From the NCBI GenBank assembly GCA_963845755.1, contig CAWJTV010000032.1, forward strand, positions 1 through 64,000: a DNA stretch of 64,000 bases, in the 5' to 3' direction. Position numbers and translations under genes: made by a program. This document shows, piece by piece, positions 25,615 through 59,308 of the stretch. Numbering within the stretch: the first letter of the stretch is position 1; each line of letters starts with the position of its first letter. Source of the stretch: an uncultured Planctomycetota bacterium. GTDB taxonomy: Bacteria > Planctomycetota > Planctomycetia > Isosphaerales > Isosphaeraceae. The notes beneath the pieces were generated by a model, which made no database searches, was not told the origin of the DNA, and was given only the letters and a program-made list of their open reading frames with translations.

Positions 25615-26067
25615 TCATCGATTCGCCGGATTCCCTTCGATCGCCACGGCGTCTCGGACGATCCTCTCCCGCCAATGTTCGGGATCGCTCTCGATCTCAT
25701 CCATGAATCGCCGCGCGATGGGACTGGGAGGCCGTGTCCCTTGCTCCCACGACCTTACGGTATTGGCGTTGACGCCGAGGAACCGGGCGAAGAGGACCTG
25801 GCTCATTCCCAGCAAGTTGCGGACCCGCCGCACGTCGTCCGGCCCGTAGTCGCGCGGAGTGAAATCGACCTTGTAAGTGCGTACCGTGAAATGACGCTTT
25901 AAAGGTTCCCTCGTCCGCATCAGGGAGATGGCCTCCTCGAGCGCGCGAACAATCTTCGCCCCCGCTGCTGACAGCTTCCCCGTGGACGGGGGGGAAGACG
26001 CCCGCTTGGACGATCGCTTCCGGTGATCGATGGCTTCCTTCGATGTCTTATCGGCCGGCTTTCCCAT
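25615..26067 (-). CDS. HigA-like XRE-HTH antitoxin
   Basis: VRRVRNLLGMSQVLFARFLGVNANTVRSWEQGTRPP; lies downstream of the toxin gene. Confidence 0.85.
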   Translation of the reverse strand: MGKPADKTSKEAIDHRKRSSKRASSPPSTGKLSAAGAKIVRALEEAISLMRTREPLKRHFTVRTYKVDFTPRDYGPDDVRRVRNLLGMSQVLFARFLGVNANTVRSWEQGTRPPSPIARRFMDEIESDPEHWRERIVRDAVAIEGNPANR

Positions 26068-26485
26068 TGCTCCCTCCACCCTTGCGGTTAACCTCGGATC
26101 TCTGCCCTCGACGGAATTCCGACTCCAGTTCGATTCGATAGCTCTCGATCATCCGGGCGATGACCCGGCAGTCCGCCTTGGTCAAGTTGTCCTTCTCGGT
26201 CTTGCCGAAGATCACGACCAGCGCAATGGTCCCGAATTCGGGAAAGACCACATAGCAGACTCGATGAGATCCTCTCTTGCCTCGTCCCGATCCCGGACCG
26301 GAAAAACGGATCTTCCGCAGACCACCGGTCCCCTGGACAACCGGTGCCCCGACTGGATCTTTCATGATCTCCAGTTCCAGGAGGCGCAAGGCCGCATCAT
26401 TCAAGCCGAGACGTTCCCATTCCCGTGTGAATGCGGGAAACCGGACGAATCGCGGCCAATCCTCGGGCCGGAAGGATTCTGCGAT
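26048..26485 (-). CDS. HigB/RelE-like toxin; apparent ATC start
   Basis: VQGTGGLRKIRF...GKRGSHRVCY...IFGKTEKDNLT. The frame extends upstream to AGGAGG-CGGC-ATC at 26485. Confidence 0.8.
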   Translation of the reverse strand: MAESFRPEDWPRFVRFPAFTREWERLGLNDAALRLLELEIMKDPVGAPVVQGTGGLRKIRFSGPGSGRGKRGSHRVCYVVFPEFGTIALVVIFGKTEKDNLTKADCRVIARMIESYRIELESEFRRGQRSEVNRKGGGSNGKAGR

Positions 26486-26715: not shown

Positions 26716-28032
26716 ATGGCACGGCGATTGTTGGCGGTGATGTTGTGTCTGTCGGTTTTGATCGGCTCGGCCTGGGCACAAGGCCCGGCCGGGCGGGGCG
26801 GACGTCGTGCGAGGGCCGTCGCGTCGCGTCCGATCGTGCTCAAGCCGGCGCGGGTGTTCGACGGGGTGAACCTCGACGTTCATGACGGCTGGGCGGTCGT
26901 CGTCCGTGGCGATCGGATCGAGACCGCCGGGCCGGCTGGCGAGGTGAAGGTCCCCGAGGGGGCCAGGGTCATCGACCTGCCCGGCATGACACTCCTCCCG
27001 GGCCTGATCGACCTGCACACGCACGTCCTGCTCCATCCGTACGATGAGGCCCTCTGGGATGACCAGGTCTTGAAGGAGGCGCTGGCGCTGCGGGTCTGCC
27101 GCGCGACCAACCACTTGAAGAGCACGTTGCTCTCCGGGTTCACGACGATCCGCGACCTCGGGACCGAAGGGGCCGGTTATGCCGACGTCGGGCTGAAGCA
27201 GGCGGTGGAGCAGGGGATCGTCCCCGGCCCGCGGATGCTGGTGGTCACCCGGGCGATTGTGGCCACCGGCAGCTACGCGCCCAAGGGGTTCGCTCCCGAG
27301 TGGCACATCCCACAGGGGGCCGAGGAGGCCGACGGCGTGGATTCCTTGATCCGGGTCGTCCGCGACCAGATTGGTCGAGGTGCCGACTGGATCAAGGTCT
27401 ATGCCGACACGGCGATGGGCGGCGCGGCGGTCCGACCGTCGTTCTCGCTGGAAGAGTTGAAGCGGATCGTCGAGACGGCGGGCTCGGTCGGCATCAAGGT
27501 CACGGCCCATGCGACGTCGAAGGAGGGGATGCGCCGCGCGACACAGGCGGGCGTCGCGACCATCGAGCACGGCGACGGCGGCGATGACGAGGTCTTCAAG
27601 CTGATGGCCGAGCGCGGTGTCGTGCTCTGCCCGACCCTGGCCGCCTTCGAAGCCTCGGCGAAGCACCGCGGCTATCGTCCGGGCACCGACCCCGAGCCGC
27701 CCCGACTGAGGCGTGCGCGGGAGACCTTCAAGAAAGCCCTCGCCGCGGGCGTCACGATCGCCAACGGCAGCGACATGGGCGTCTTCGCCCACGGCGATGG
27801 CGCACGCGAGATCGAGCTCCTGGTCGACTACGGCATGAAGCCGGCGGAGGCCCTCCGCGCAGCGACCTCGGTGGCCGCCAAGGCCATCGCGTTCGACAAC
27901 CGCCTCGGCGCCATCAAGCCGGGGCTCCTGGCCGACCTCGCCGCCGTCGAGGGCGACCCGACCCGCGACATCAAGGCCCTCCGGCAAGTTAAGCTCGTCA
28001 TGAAAGGCGGAGAACTCTATAGAGAGCCGTGA
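26716..28032 (+). CDS. Secreted metal-dependent amidohydrolase (Xaa-Pro dipeptidase-like)
   Basis: RBS AAAGGAG, signal peptide, PGLIDLHTH, GADWIK, TAHA, TIEHG, NGSD, GLLADL. Confidence 0.92.
   Translation: MARRLLAVMLCLSVLIGSAWAQGPAGRGGRRARAVASRPIVLKPARVFDGVNLDVHDGWAVVVRGDRIETAGPAGEVKVPEGARVIDLPGMTLLPGLIDLHTHVLLHPYDEALWDDQVLKEALALRVCRATNHLKSTLLSGFTTIRDLGTEGAGYADVGLKQAVEQGIVPGPRMLVVTRAIVATGSYAPKGFAPEWHIPQGAEEADGVDSLIRVVRDQIGRGADWIKVYADTAMGGAAVRPSFSLEELKRIVETAGSVGIKVTAHATSKEGMRRATQAGVATIEHGDGGDDEVFKLMAERGVVLCPTLAAFEASAKHRGYRPGTDPEPPRLRRARETFKKALAAGVTIANGSDMGVFAHGDGAREIELLVDYGMKPAEALRAATSVAAKAIAFDNRLGAIKPGLLADLAAVEGDPTRDIKALRQVKLVMKGGELYREP
27907..28032 (+). repeat. 126-bp direct repeat (attL-like), the functional 3' end of the amidohydrolase
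   Basis: Matches 34344-34469 without gaps; 62-bp identical core at 27928-27989. Confidence 0.95.
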
Positions 28033-28080: not shown

Positions 28081-28777
28081 TCATTGGACTTCCAGATTCC
28101 TCCGCACCCAAGCTGCAACAGAGAGGAGGAAAGCAAGCGGGTTAGGGTCGCCAATGGCCAGCCTGAGGTCGTTTTCCCCGGGCTCCTCCAAGCCGCGAGA
28201 CCGTTCGACGGAGGAGGCTTTTGGGTGGGAGTTGAAGTGCAGGTGTGACGACGGATGCGCGGGGTTGTGTCCGAGGGTTCGCCTCCAATCTCGCAGCCAG
28301 TCCTCGCGCGGCGGTTTGCCCGCCTCACGCGCGTTGACTTCCCATCTCAAGTTGAACAAGCCAAACCTGCCCTCGTGCAGATCAAAGTCAAGGCTGATGC
28401 GACCTTTCATGATCTCGACGAGTGGAATCGTATCGCCTGGCGCGTAATGGGCGACAAACCTTGTCCAACTCGGGACACAGGTTCGGCCATTCAATGGGGC
28501 GCATCTGCAACAGGATCTCGGCCCGGCCTCCGCCTGAGACCTGGAGCGGCACCGTGGCGTTTTCGATACTTGACGATCCCGGCTTGAAATAGTGCTCCGC
28601 CGTATCATCCGAAACTCCAGCGACGAGGACAGCCCAGCGTGAGGCATCCTTCTCCGCTTTTTCAGTCCAATCGAACAGCGACTTATTCGGGACATCGCGC
28701 TTGAAGATTTGAGCCACGTCGAGACATCGCTCGAAAACCTTGATCATATGGCTGAGGCGATAATCGGAGGACGACAC
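28081..28777 (-). CDS. Hypothetical protein with HPxSHLH motif (DUF2290-like; frameshift ~28455)
   Basis: Joins ORFs 28388..28777 and 28081..28695; C-terminal LRWE...HNPAHPSSHLHFN...DLRL...PNPLAFLLSV. Confidence 0.55.
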
Positions 28778-28783
28778 GGGGCG

Positions 28784-29395
28784 TCAACCTTCGTCAGAGG
28801 AGGGAAGGGGCGCCCAATCCGCAAGCTCCTCGGCGGTGGGCGCTCTCCCGGGGAGTTGGCGCAAGATGCTCTCAAACGGTTCGGGCAGGGCTTTCTGGAG
28901 TTTTTCAAAAGTCTCCCTCGAGCACACCATCATCATCCGAGAGGCATCAGAGATTCTCGGGCCGATGAACGAAGCCAGGTCGGGCGCATTGCGCCGGAAG
29001 TCCATGAAATCGGCATTGCGAACGACCATCAGCGTACCTCTCGGCTCCGACAAGGGGCGGCGCCACCCATTGAGACGGGGCCCGACCTGTATACTGACAG
29101 CCTGTTGGAGGAATAAGATCCAAAGCGGATGAGGAGGTGGAGGCGAGTCGTCGATCTGGTCTGGCATTCCTTCCTGTTCGACCTGAACGCGGAGTCTTCC
29201 TTGTATCATGTCATTCAGCTCTTTGATTCGTGTCACCTCGTTTGAGATCAACAGTGGTTGGGTGGGCATCTCGCCGAGAGCGGCGATGGTGATCAACAGG
29301 ACGCGATACAAGTCATCCATATCGTCCCAGAGCAAGGCGTGAACGCCGTGCCCTTCCTCATGCAACGAGAAAGCGAGTTGTTCGACGAGCGCCAT
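28784..29395 (-). CDS. Hypothetical protein, possibly a degenerate P-loop/ATPase partner
   Basis: 203 aa; LNGWRRPL...FRRNAPDLASF motif; starts 1 nt after the ATPase stop codon. Confidence 0.6.
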   Translation of the reverse strand: MALVEQLAFSLHEEGHGVHALLWDDMDDLYRVLLITIAALGEMPTQPLLISNEVTRIKELNDMIQGRLRVQVEQEGMPDQIDDSPPPPHPLWILFLQQAVSIQVGPRLNGWRRPLSEPRGTLMVVRNADFMDFRRNAPDLASFIGPRISDASRMMMVCSRETFEKLQKALPEPFESILRQLPGRAPTAEELADWAPLPSSDEG

Positions 29396-29396
29396 G

Positions 29397-30738
29397 TCAG
29401 GCCGTGGCTCCTAACCTCTGAAAGCGGTACTGCCCGAGGGTCGTCCGAGCGAGCGGGTGGACACGCAGGCTCGGCTTATCAGCATCACGGTGCGGCTCGC
29501 TGACTAATAACCCGATCGGGGATCTCAAGAGTAATGCGGCCTTCGCCAAACCGGTCCCCGATCGATCAATCTCATCGAGCGATTGGAGTTCTTCCTCGCC
29601 ATAATCCAGGTACGCCTGCCTGGCATCGAAAACAACGGAGTGGGCTTCTCCCAATTCGATCCGGTCGTGTTCCGCGAGATGGGCCTCCTGGGCGGCCTCG
29701 GCCAAGAATTGGACAAACATCCTCAGAATGCCGCCGCTGTAATGGGCGAGCCACCTCAGAGCATCCTCCGAAACCAGTTCCCTGAGCGCGGCACTCTTGG
29801 CGATGGACCGATAGATCTCGGGAATCGGCCCTTCAATCGGATCGGGTATCTCCAACGGGTACAGGATCAGCGGCCGACCCCAGCGCGACTCGACAGAAGT
29901 CCTCGTCGGACCGATGGTGTATTCAAAAGGGGCGGTCATGACAACGGACGCCTCAAGACGGCTCCATTGTGGTGAGACGCCCACAAGGACATCCTCGGCG
30001 GCGTAGGAGTCTCGGATCTTATCGACGTGGTCGATGATCAGAAGTGGAGGACGGTTCTGATCGTTCCGGGCGAACCACTTCAACAGCTTATTTAGGAGTA
30101 CCACGAGGGCATCGGGCGCGCAGCGCGAATCGCTGGGACGGCTCCGCGACCGACTCGTGGAGCGCGGCTTTGCCGAGGATGATTCCCAAGGCCCTCGACC
30201 TGTCGGAAAGCGAAATCGGAAAATCCATACCGCCGAATGTGAAAACAACTTGTGAGCCATCGCCCGCGGAGATGCCGCGCAGCCAATCCACTAACCGTGT
30301 CAAAATCTCATCGCGAATCCTGTCGAGAGCAGCTTGCTGGAGCTGAGGACCGCGCGGGAAAATCTGTGTAGATGCCCAACAATCGCGCAGGATGGTCAGG
30401 AACAGCCCTGTCGAGCCGCAACGCTCGGGACTCTCCTCTTTTTCGAGGTCGCAAAATACCGGGAATCCCAGGTCAGCCGCGTTGTATCGCTCTTCGCGGA
30501 AATCCCAGAGCTCCGACGACTTGCCAACGCCGATCTGCCCCGTCACAAGTATTCTTGCCTTCCCCATGCGACTCTCGACGCCAAGGAGGAGTCGCTTCCT
30601 GAACTCTCCGCCGCGTTCCTGATAGAGTGTCCGCGCAGGATCGCCTTCCTTGGGAAGACGACGTTCGGCACGCCGCTCGGCGTTGAGCCGACCCAAGACG
30701 CTTCGGAGGATCTGAATATCGCGCAAGGACGCGGGCAT
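29397..30738 (-). CDS. P-loop (STAND/AAA-like) ATPase (frameshift ~30120)
   Basis: Walker A GQIGVGKS, Walker B LLIIDHVD, SGGILR, C-terminal VHPL. Confidence 0.8.
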
Positions 30739-30937: not shown

Positions 30938-32026
30938 TCAGCGCCCGACGAGATCTCTGAACTGCTTCTCGTTGATGATACAAATCGCATGACCCAGCCG
31001 GATCAACTTCTCCGCCTGGCAGAGCTTGTCCCCTTTGTGGCCATTTCTATAGTGGGGTGAACGACGGCCCTGAACGATGACATCGACCCGAGTCGAGACT
31101 TCATCGGCAACCGATCCGCCGGCCTGCCTCACCATGACCGCGGCGTCGAACCGAGGGATCGTGAGGGGACCGGTGAAGACGACAGTCTTCCCGGCGAGGC
31201 TCTCCAGGCAAGGCTCAATGTGATCAGCGTCAGCCTGGAGGGCGCGGAGCATCTCGCGGGCGTCCGGGTACCGCGACTTGCGCGGGCAAATGGCCTTGGC
31301 GATGATGCGCTTGAGGTCGTCGTCGCACGTGAGTCCCTTGAGGTCTCTCTTGCCGAGCAGGGTATGGGGATCACCCCTGAGCAGCATCCCTAACAATTGA
31401 CCCATCTGGTAGACATCGTCCGAGGGGAGGACGTAACGTTGCAATCCCTGAGCCATCCGGGTCGACACAAAATCGGGAGCGAAGGCCGAGGCGGTTGCCG
31501 CGCGTCCCGCGAGCACATGCTTGGCGATGCCAAAATCCCCGAGCTTGAGCCGTCGATTGCAGAGGAAGACATTCCTCGGCGTGATATCTCGGTGCAAGGC
31601 CCCGGCGTCGTGGAGTTGAGAGAGCAGCTTCAAGAGAGCGATGATTTCCTGTACGGCGCGCTTCTGCGACCAGGGCCTCCGTGTTGATTCCAGATGATCG
31701 TGGACCGTGCCGGATTCCACAAGTTCGGAGACCAGGCAGTAGAGCACTTCATGCCCCTTGGGATTCGGGAAGAATGGGAACGATTCGTACATCCGAATCG
31801 CCCTGTCGCTCTTCTTGAGGAGTTCACCGAAGTAGGCCTCGTGGTGCCAGCTTTTCGCATCGGTCGTCGTCTTCAGGCAGAATCCCTCGATCCGATGGTC
31901 TCGCTTGTTGAGGCGATGGGCCCGATAGGCACACCCGAATCCGCCTTCCCCCAGCATCTCCGCAACCTGGTATCGCTGGCCGGACACGGGGCTTGTGATG
32001 ATGATTCCCGACTTGAGTCTTGCCAT
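30938..32026 (-). CDS. Ser/Thr protein kinase with C-terminal BRCT domain
   Basis: GEGGFG, CLK, HRDITPRN, LGDFG, DVYQMG; BRCT LAGKTVVFTGPL...AGG.V...VSTRVDVIVQG...K...A......IINEKQF. Confidence 0.88.
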   Translation of the reverse strand: MARLKSGIIITSPVSGQRYQVAEMLGEGGFGCAYRAHRLNKRDHRIEGFCLKTTTDAKSWHHEAYFGELLKKSDRAIRMYESFPFFPNPKGHEVLYCLVSELVESGTVHDHLESTRRPWSQKRAVQEIIALLKLLSQLHDAGALHRDITPRNVFLCNRRLKLGDFGIAKHVLAGRAATASAFAPDFVSTRMAQGLQRYVLPSDDVYQMGQLLGMLLRGDPHTLLGKRDLKGLTCDDDLKRIIAKAICPRKSRYPDAREMLRALQADADHIEPCLESLAGKTVVFTGPLTIPRFDAAVMVRQAGGSVADEVSTRVDVIVQGRRSPHYRNGHKGDKLCQAEKLIRLGHAICIINEKQFRDLVGR

Positions 32027-32487: not shown

Positions 32488-34297
32488 ATGGCCTCAGTCG
32501 CAAGCACCTTCAGGACCGACTCCCCGTTCTTGCATGAATTGCTCGACCAGATCCATAAAGGGAGCGTTCAACTTCCCGACTTCCAGCGCGGCTGGGTCTG
32601 GGACGATGACCGCATCCGGGCCCTGATCGCCAGTATCTCGCTCTCGTATCCCATCGGTGCCGTGATGCTGATGGAGACCGGCGGGAACGGTGTGCGGTTC
32701 AAGCCGCGGCCCGTGGAAGGCGCGCCCAGGCTCGGCCGGCTGAGCCCCAGCGCCTGATCCTCGACGGTCAGCAGCGGCTAACCTCGCTCTATCTGGCCTT
32801 GCTTAGCGGCAGGCCCGTGAAGACCCAGACGGCCAAGAAGGAGCCGGTTGAGCGCGTCTACTTCCTCGACATAGCCCAGTGCCTCGATCCCGACGCCGAC
32901 CGGCTCGACGCCATCGTGTCACTCCCATCCAACCGGATGCGCAAGAGTGACTTCGATCGAAAGATCGACCTCGACGTCAGCACGGATGAGAAGGCGTACG
33001 AGATTGGTCTGTTTCCTCTCGACATCATTTTTGATTGGGAGAAATGTGCCGCTTGGCAAGAGGGTTACAGCGAGCATTTCGGCTACGACCCATCGAGATT
33101 GCGATCCTACAATAAGTTCGCGGCGACGGTCCTCAATCGGCTCCACAATTACCGCGTCCCCATCATCGAGCTCCTCCAGACCACACCCAAGGACGCTGTC
33201 TGTCAGGTCTTCGAGAATGTCAACACAGGCGGCGTCGCCCTGACGGTCTTCGAGCTGATGACCGCAACCTACGCGGCGGATGACTTCGAGCTGCGCAAGG
33301 ATTGGGAAACTCGGTCGGCTCGCATGCACAAGCACCGTCAGCTCAGGGAAGTTGATTCGGACGACTTCCTGATGGCCGTGACGCTACTGGCGACCTATCG
33401 TAGCAAGCAAGCCGACGGCAAGACGGCCGTCAGTTGCAAGCGGAAGGATGTCCTGAATCTCGGCCTCGATACGTACAGAGCTTGCGCCGACCAGATCGAG
33501 AGAGGGATGCTGCAATCGGCCAGGTTGCTGACTCGCGAGAAGGTCTTCGACAACAAGACGCTCCCCTACATCACCCAGATCGTTCCGCTGTCGGCAATCT
33601 GTGCCGTGCTCGGTTCCCGGTTCGAGGAGGATCCGATCAAGCGCCGGCTGAGCCGGTGGTACTGGTGCGGCGTCTTCGGCGAGCTGTACGGCGGTGCGAA
33701 CGAGAGCCGGTTTGCCAATGACATCCAGGATGTCCTGGCCTGGCTCGATGGGGGCGAGGAGCCACGAACGATCCGCGAATCGAACTTCGCTCCGTCCCGA
33801 CTTCTGACCCTCCAGACTCGATTGAGCGCAGCCTACAAGGGACTGATGGCCCTGCTCATGAAAGCCGGCAGCCAGGACTTCCTCAGTGGCGACCCGATCG
33901 AACTGACGAACTACTTCGATGCTGCCGTGGATATCCACCACATCTTCCCCGCGAAGCACTGCGAGGATCAGGACTATGATCGCCCGCGATGGAACAGCGT
34001 GATCAACAAGGCACCGCTCTCGGCCCGCACCAACCGGATCATCGGCGGCAAGGCTCCCAGCGAGTATCTTGGGAGCCTCGAGAAGAACCATAAAGTCAGC
34101 CCAGAGCGGCTGGACCAGATACTTCAGAGCCACCTGATCGAGCCTCACCTGATCCGAAAAAACGCCTTTGACGACTTCCTCCGCGCCGCGCCGGCCGATT
34201 ACTGGACCTTATCGAGAACGCCACCGGAAAGCCGATCCCCGGACGCGATTCCGACGAGGTCGTCAACATCTTCAGGGGAACTCTTGCCAGGGAATGA
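32488..34297 (+). CDS. GmrSD-like DUF262 protein with C-terminal HNH-like domain (frameshifts ~32745 and ~34185)
   Basis: [37 protein letters not shown]...[14 protein letters not shown]. Confidence 0.85.
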
Positions 34298-34343
34298 GCG
34301 GGCGGGTCAAGGAGAGAGCAATAAGCCGGCTCGACAGCCGTCC

Positions 34344-34469
34344 GGCGCGATCAAGCCGGGCCTGCTGGCCGACCTCGCCGCCGTCGAGGGCGACCCGACC
34401 CGCGACATCAAGGCCCTCCGGCAAGTGAAGCTCGTTATGAAAGGGGGCACGCTGTATCGGGAGCCGTAA
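34344..34469 (+). repeat. 126-bp direct repeat (attR-like), orphan amidohydrolase 3' end
   Basis: Encodes [41 protein letters not shown]. Confidence 0.95.
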
Positions 34470-34487: not shown

Positions 34488-34730
34488 ATGAAGACCATCG
34501 ATTTCGCCCAAACCCAACCGGATGTCGCCCTCTTGCTCGATCAGGCACGCAACGACGATCTGATCCTCTGCCTGGCCGACGGAACGGAATTCTTGCTGGT
34601 GGCCATCGATGATTTTGATGAGATCACCCGGAACCGGAGCAATCCCAGACTGATGTTTCTCCTGGAGTCGCGGGCCAAGCAGACGGCGACTATCCCCTTG
34701 GATGAAGTCAAACGGCGGCTGGGCTTGTAA
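34488..34730 (+). CDS. Phd/YefM-like antitoxin-type small protein
   Basis: 80 aa; MKTIDF...LLDQARNDDLIL...; C-terminal IPLDEVKRRLGL; RBS GGAG. Confidence 0.6.
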   Translation: MKTIDFAQTQPDVALLLDQARNDDLILCLADGTEFLLVAIDDFDEITRNRSNPRLMFLLESRAKQTATIPLDEVKRRLGL

Positions 34731-58750: not shown

Positions 58751-59308
58751 ATGGGAACACCCATGGCCTTCCGCTTCAGGTCGCTCAAAACCACTCAAGC
58801 CGCGGCGATGCTTCTCGCCTTGGACGGCAACTCGATGGATCGTATGCGACTGCTCAAGCTCATGTATATCGCCGATCGGGAGTTGCTCGCCGAATCGGGC
58901 CGCACGCTCACGGGCGATCGGGCCGTGGCCATGAGGAACGGCCCCGTTCTGAGCCGCATTTACGACCTCATCAAAGGAATCGAGGTCTCACCGGAAGACT
59001 GGGGGCGATACCTTCGATCGGAAGGGTACAAGGTCGTGCTCCTGGGAGATCCCGGCCGTGGAGAGCTGACGAAGAGGGAGATCGAAAAACTGCACGACGT
59101 GACCGAACGGTATCGCTCGGTCACGACGCCGGCTCTCTCGGCTCATACTCACAGGTTTCCCGAATGGACCAAGAATTATCAGGCCGGCACATCGTCGCCG
59201 ATTCCCTGGCGGGATGCCTTGGCAGCGACCGGTCACGCGGACAAAGCAGAAACCATCGAGAAGCGGCTCGAGGAACAAAACCTGATCGATTTGATCTTCG
59301 GAGCTTGA
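58751..59308 (+). CDS. Panacea (DUF4065/SocA/GepA-like) antitoxin
   Basis: RLLKLMYIADR...LTGDRAVAMRNGPV...LSAHTHRFPEW. Confidence 0.85.
   Translation: MGTPMAFRFRSLKTTQAAAMLLALDGNSMDRMRLLKLMYIADRELLAESGRTLTGDRAVAMRNGPVLSRIYDLIKGIEVSPEDWGRYLRSEGYKVVLLGDPGRGELTKREIEKLHDVTERYRSVTTPALSAHTHRFPEWTKNYQAGTSSPIPWRDALAATGHADKAETIEKRLEEQNLIDLIFGA

Follow-up and report, generated by a model that had tools for sequence, protein, structure and literature searches.

A conserved three-gene unit of a STAND/KAP-like ATPase, an inactive STAND-fold partner and a putative histidine-motif effector in Planctomycetota and other bacteria

Pairs of an active and a dead STAND ATPase are predicted to act as conflict systems. 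The theme is already in print: in the nSTAND2 operon, two neighbouring genes for an active and an eroded STAND NTPase form a mobile unit, and their products are predicted, in the available text of Kaur, Iyer, Burroughs and Aravind 2021 (PMC8195603), to build a mixed ring controlling an effector, which is a GT4 or HEPN domain on the same chain as the dead STAND. The iSTAND ternary systems and BrxB/BrxF of BREX also have a compact STAND fold devoid of Walker motifs, proposed to be a sensor or switch beside an active AAA+ ATPase and an effector (sections of PMC7159879 and 10.1101/2025.10.09.681413). Lee et al. 2026 (PMC13581612) outline the Avs and bacterial NLR-like STAND receptors, in which one chain carries the switch together with a long sensor of TPR, WD40 or FGE type.

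Two further systems share features with the third gene described here. DUF2290 together with a helicase blocks phage T7 according to the excerpted text of Rousset et al. 2022 (PMC9122126), which confirms that this domain belongs to a described anti-phage system. The helicase-DUF2290 system is also listed in excerpts of PMC10952713 and PMC12278908, and a lactococcal homologue gave no protection in the experiments covered by the excerpt of PMC11381338. Durairaj et al. 2023 (PMC10584680) describe TumE-TumA (DUF6516) as a toxin-antitoxin pair that has been validated and acts by inhibiting translation.

Here, we analyse a 64,000-nt stretch of an uncultured Isosphaeraceae genome (the window), which carries three genes on the minus strand. 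Gene 1 (29397–30738; ATG at 30738, stop at 29397) encodes a STAND/KAP-like P-loop ATPase of about 446 aa when read as in its homologues, protein A. Gene 2 (28784–29395) has an unbroken reading frame of 203 aa and encodes protein B, a stand-alone inactive AAA+/STAND-fold protein with a helical C-terminal tail. Gene 3 (28081–28777; GTG at 28777, stop at 28081) encodes protein C, an alpha+beta protein of about 230 aa and the putative effector. The co-oriented genes are separated by 1 nt (genes 1 and 2) and 6 nt (genes 2 and 3), exactly as first described. The trio is conserved and apparently undescribed: it varies the theme of paired active and dead STANDs by adding a separate, putative DUF2290-like effector as a third gene. 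The first-pass annotation had recognised no named system, and neither PADLOC, NCBIfam, Pfam nor the literature searched gave a match; the same literature holds no description of the three-gene combination, which supplements outside that search could still contain unnamed.

Like the nSTAND2 operon, the trio has adjacent active and inactive STAND-fold genes. However, no effector is fused to its dead domain; the putative effector belongs to a different family and has a gene of its own, the third. The nSTAND2 model of Pfam (PF20702) matched none of the 23 gene-1 members (E<=0.1) and 0/5 carrier genomes, in a search run without a positive control. As both the family and the effector fusion are missing, the trio does not belong to this operon type. 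With the helicase-DUF2290 system it shares the placement of an NTPase gene ahead of one whose product contains R-[YWF]-[DE] ... HPxxHxH ... R ... P, but in place of a helicase it has a STAND/KAP-like ATPase and a dead partner (no helicase family is among the 17 Pfam families matched by 23 gene-1 homologues), and gene 3 misses the Pfam and PADLOC models of DUF2290, to which it aligns over 51 columns only. The trio therefore falls outside that system as well. A true planctomycete helicase-DUF2290 locus exists (L045, at about 900000–902600 of G099:C6) and is the only DUF2290 hit in 201 genomes of the phylum.

As in TumE-TumA, a gene in the toxin position, with an R-x-D ... HxH motif, follows a partner gene, and in a divergent clade the tail of gene 2 resembles the genes upstream of TumE. 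Unlike that pair, the trio has two extra ATPase-fold components, the window's clade has no TumA-like tail and gene 3 has no sequence match to the TumE toxin, for which reason it is not a TumE-TumA system. The pairing of a compact Walker-less STAND fold with an active ATPase and an effector recalls iSTAND and BREX; in contrast to these, the unit contains no MoxR, vWA, PglZ or methyltransferase. Pfam iSTAND and PADLOC BrxB/BrxF do not match gene 2, and the PF19995 (iSTAND) matches in carrier genomes fall away from the trio. With Avs the trio has in common a STAND-type switch coupled to a putative effector, but it is split into three genes and has no repeat sensor.

A search with the gene 2 alignment gave 17 loci from GTDB genomes and a further 26 from metagenomes. 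The three genes co-occur as had been proposed: gene 1 immediately precedes gene 2 in 37/37 loci whose flank is 150 nt or longer, and gene 3 immediately follows it in 40 of the 42 loci whose flank is 200 nt or longer, the exceptions being L033 and L042. The profiles used for these counts were built partly from the counted loci, but a tblastn search with segments taken from the window agrees with them; since several loci are near-duplicates, the counts do not represent independent events. In the 17 loci that are complete, the trees of the three genes recover the same clades, their pairwise identities correlate at 0.79–0.86, and no intergenic gap exceeds 19 nt. The trio is passed on as a single unit.

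The distribution of this unit is sporadic, with loci in Planctomycetota, Sumerlaeota, Omnitrophota and other uncultured bacteria. It is present in 3/121 genomes of the order, the same three that carry gene 1, and among 401 genomes of the phylum the true trio was found only in G000. In the phylum of G521, 6/35 genomes carry it, one copy being decayed.

In gene 1 (residue numbers as in L005), the Walker A motif GQIGVGKS, DHVDK, T259, R270, GGxxR and HP are invariant in 23/23 close homologues. Both Walker motifs had initially been called intact. This holds for Walker A but goes too far for Walker B, where the second acidic position is His in all 23. This unusual Walker B points to a slow switch and not to a motor. 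LLIIDHVD and SGGILR are present in the translation of the window's copy, as is VHPL, which is not terminal as had been thought but lies about 20 residues short of the C-terminal end. Gene 1 homologues are 435–450 aa long and have no repeat or effector domain. Their Pfam matches are sub-threshold only (AAA_16, AAA_22 and nSTAND_NTPase5), with AAA_16 below its cut-off in 23/23 members. In the Atlas, gene 1 is linked at 0.97–0.99 to KAP/AAA_16-labelled clusters, which are common in cyanobacteria and myxobacteria.

Profile comparison (A3) aligns gene 1 to a distantly related ATPase of G008 (97%, E 2e-10), which together with the Atlas values makes it homologous to ATPases that are paired with repeat-fused dead P-loop domains. 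These pairs are presumably those known as MNS/Npun2340, a label that appears in PMC8195603. In G008 and five of seven plasmid relatives, the ATPase is followed by a NACHT-pentapeptide protein, by WD40 proteins (two cases), by a 153-aa stand-alone protein, or by a second ATPase or unrelated gene. Because the downstream genes vary, the gene 1 ATPase belongs to a wider chassis whose partners are exchangeable. The G008 locus (L089:6638–13222), next to clpC, holds a CHAT/NB-ARC gene and the distant gene 1 relative, and in its third protein an N-terminus resembling a dead P-loop domain is joined to NACHT and pentapeptide repeats. The 153-aa partner is a stand-alone dead domain after a related ATPase on the Nostoc plasmid NZ_CP151102.1 (L137:4292–4753) and could be a truncated fusion.

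The view of gene 2 as a dead P-loop domain lacking Walker motifs is borne out by structure matches to AAA+/STAND folds, among them ORC/Cdc6 and TnsC, and the reported LNGWRRPL...FRRNAPDLAS is found in its translation. Homologues do not exceed 211 aa (48 hits in a length-unrestricted search). R147, before the last strand, is an arginine in 33/36 close homologues and in 14/26 of the wider set; by position only, it and the invariant R270 of gene 1 are candidate arginine fingers. When gene 2 is compared with the fused dead domains, the motifs N..R ... [AV]PD[LF].[SH]W align, with a probability of 0.2%, or 1% with six rows. After removal of two non-homologous rows the probability is 9.5%, and the score of 25.1 stays below the 28.4 that block shuffles reach. 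Locus L042 has an IS element (HTH_38 and rve; 321–1304) inserted into the 3' part of its gene 2, followed by an intact gene 3; L033 breaks off at the same gene 2 residue.

Gene 3 has the signature R-[WF]-[ED]-x-D ... NPxHxxxHxHxN ... R ... P, and in an alignment of 24 rows from both clades R143, N170, P171, H173, H177, H179, N181, R204 and P212 (numbered as in L002) are invariant in all rows. The window's copy reads HPSSHLH...LRLAIGDPNPLAFL, as noted before. The first-pass annotation had called the protein DUF2290-like. For the core motif this is correct: the merged alignment (A7, 24 rows) matches five DUF2290 proteins at 77% (E 2e-5, score 41.6, 51 columns), whereas 60 column shuffles reach at most 19.6 and 60 block shuffles at most 27.1, and the match is also above reversed and unrelated controls. 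The aligned core is R-[YW]-[DE]...HPxxHxH...R...P. The comparison with a single DUF2290 sequence gives 3%, that of the divergent clade alone with DUF2290 8%, and the Atlas lead stands at 0.84. Membership in DUF2290 is not supported, as Pfam PF10053 matches 0/26 members at E<=1 and the PADLOC model 0/7 proteins (the positive control, L045, scores E 9e-13). Nor is a DUF2290- or nuclease-like fold: the predicted structure of the L002 protein (pLDDT 88, alpha+beta) has no clear match among PDB or viral models. Pfam TumE (PF20126) likewise matches 0/26 members, and a profile comparison with 17 TumE proteins gives 0.6%. Five loci (L008, L009, L010, L020 and L039) have a broken gene 3, which would weakly fit a gene that is costly to its host.

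A far more divergent trio with the same gene order is found in L085:7488–9875 (G237:C58), G237 being one of the three genomes of the order. It aligns to the window's clade at 98% for the gene 3 profile, 61% for gene 2 and E 4e-30 for gene 1, and its gene 1 has a canonical DDLDK Walker B. The tail of its gene 2 matches the partners in the antitoxin position of 15 TumE hits at 85% (E 6e-6, score 32.3; maximum of 40 shuffles 12.8), a match that involves only two sequences and reaches E 0.01 and 0.058 in an HMM search against 836 targets. The partner profile consists of the genes upstream of those 15 hits, so their identity as TumA follows from position. The same tail is absent from gene 2 of the window's clade (probability 0.1% in profile comparison). 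Six further homologues of the L085 gene 3 exist.

In the window, the trio lies in an insert of 6.3 kb, and the island that had been suspected is real in this genome. A 125-nt direct repeat on the plus strand bounds the insert, the left copy (27906–28030) being the 3' end of an amidohydrolase gene and the right copy (34343–34467) being 90% identical to it. GC is 59% between the copies and 65% and 67% on the flanks. Besides the trio, the insert contains a Ser/Thr kinase with a C-terminal BRCT-like domain (30938–32026, minus strand; Pkinase E 3e-19, BRCT E 0.04) and a GmrSD/DUF262-type gene with two frameshifts (32488 to about 34298, plus strand; GmrSD_N E 5e-13 and 3e-6), which PADLOC matches to PDC-M55C and HEC-05. 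The true end of this last gene is in a third frame, and the long ORF called at 32799–34469 falsely enters the duplicated amidohydrolase end. The trio had been placed next to DUF262; they do share the insert, but they are not immediate neighbours, as 1.75 kb and the kinase gene separate them. Close homologues of the kinase and of GmrSD are absent beside the trio in 43 related loci, so both are fellow cargo outside the conserved unit.

Among the matches listed in 101 genomes of the family, only G000 and G271 have a second copy of the amidohydrolase gene end. In G271 the trio is also present and adjoins the amidohydrolase. In the relatives G214 and G248 the amidohydrolase is followed by a homologue of the gene at 34488, with no insert. 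That gene (34488–34730) is an orphan Phd/YefM-like antitoxin directly after the right repeat; in G248 (L080, 11030–11242) a ParE/RelE-like toxin gene, absent in the window, precedes its homologue. The kinase-BRCT gene is co-oriented with the trio, upstream of it, and has generic matches to PD-T4-6 and other defence kinases. Upstream of the amidohydrolase is a pair of a RelE-like toxin and an HTH antitoxin (25618–26404), present in L002 too, and a SocA/Panacea-domain antitoxin is encoded at 58763–59305 (E 1e-20).

We suggest that the trio is an ATPase-gated toxin module used in defence against invaders, and regard this as an evenly balanced call. Active and dead AAA+ subunits form mixed oligomers in ORC and in the clamp loader. 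Starting from the co-inheritance, the folds and the motifs, which are what the analysis establishes, we infer binding, toxicity, trigger and target. Proteins A and B would form a mixed oligomer of the same type, in which B may serve as the adaptor or antitoxin that keeps C inactive. A trigger would then shift the nucleotide state of A, and because the trio has no repeat sensor this is most likely a phage protein or nucleic acid. The shift would free or activate C, a putative His-dependent nucleic-acid hydrolase that would arrest the infected cell.

The DUF2290-like motif of C, the STAND-type A-B pair and the sporadic spread as a low-GC unit all point towards a defence module, and so does the joint insertion with GmrSD at a site that is empty in relatives. 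Against it, the trio was not found in the viral contigs or plasmids searched, and its neighbours are mostly metabolic or housekeeping genes (161 of 162 called ORFs scanned in 26 other loci, by annotation only). Classical defence genes occur beside it only in L008 (TIR) and L019 (Eco57I-type methylase). The defence role is accordingly a proposal only. No MoxR/vWA neighbour is conserved in these loci, a single MoxR-like gene lying 1.7 kb from the trio in L013. In one locus (L035:2–1363) an RtcB RNA ligase is directly upstream of the trio. The insertion in L042 argues against the tail of B as an essential antitoxin, as an interrupted gene 2 with an intact gene 3 would be tolerable only if the insertion silences C.

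The same biochemistry could also serve an ATPase-regulated toxin-antitoxin or stress/dormancy module, a selfish cassette with no phage-specific trigger. We consider this rather improbable. Stand-alone insertions among housekeeping genes are what such a cassette would show, and genes of the toxin-antitoxin type are near the trio in several loci, for example L002, L012, L017 and L025. The TumA-like tail in the divergent clade and a GC content below that of the locus in 16/17 complete cases would also fit. However, simple addiction would not need the two STAND-fold components that every intact locus retains, and the known context of DUF2290 is anti-phage in the available text of PMC9122126.

Quite unlikely, in our judgement, is a signalling or regulatory unit in which A and B would serve as an all-purpose switch chassis and C, rather than a toxin, would be an output or sensor that binds a metal or ligand. 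Such a chassis would explain why the partners after gene 1 relatives are fused to WD40, to NACHT-pentapeptide or to nothing. It would also be in keeping with the good conservation of the three genes (mean identity 57, 45 and 42%) and with the lack of a nuclease fold match for C. It is harder to reconcile with the relation of the His cluster of C to DUF2290 and with the sporadic distribution, and the loci scanned share no regulator, receiver or target gene next to the trio.

We see very little room for a mobility module, in which A would be a TnsC/ORC-like DNA-binding ATPase, B a loader and C a His-dependent nicking or recombination enzyme, the 125-nt repeat being the trace of insertion. ORC/Cdc6 and TnsC do appear among the fold matches of B, and a duplicated gene end bounds the insert here and is also doubled in the trio-carrying G271; yet the 6.3-kb insert has no integrase or transposase, target genes differ from locus to locus, and an imperfect duplication of this length fits homologous recombination by the host.

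The two frameshifts that had been reported near 30120 and 28455 are both present, in gene 1 near 30120 and in gene 3 at about 28466, and each is one extra base relative to the intact Isosphaeraceae homologue L002; gene 1 is a single open frame in complete homologues. Other genes in the assembly are split as well (GmrSD twice, and a 744-aa sigma-factor homologue), and assembly error is therefore the likelier cause. That the window's copy of this genuine family is a decaying pseudogene is hardly credible, as an independent soil-metagenome contig over 28280–28552 has no extra base at 28466 (one contig, depth 3.8) and unrelated genes are split too, even with two breaks in three genes, a gene 1 break that is bridged by none of the contig matches listed and a G534 gene 1 that is full of stops.

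Within the defence module, it can tentatively be speculated that the trio is a minimal, sensor-less, three-chain NLR-like switch, in which the dead STAND is the antitoxin of a DUF2290/TumE-type toxin and the His-Walker-B ATPase gates its release on infection; we hold this to be possible but doubtful. If it is true, DUF2290, TumE and the gene 3 family would be one superfamily of His-dependent effectors, plugged into three control modes (a helicase, a plain antitoxin and a STAND pair), and the divergent clade would be a TumA antitoxin caught in the middle of its fusion to a dead STAND. As the dead STAND stands alone at 200 aa beside a small separate effector, the three proteins together (about 880 aa) lend themselves readily to cloning, mutagenesis and reconstitution. 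The trio would thus allow a direct test of the dead STAND as sensor, adaptor or antitoxin, and would give a second genetic context for the DUF2290-type motif.
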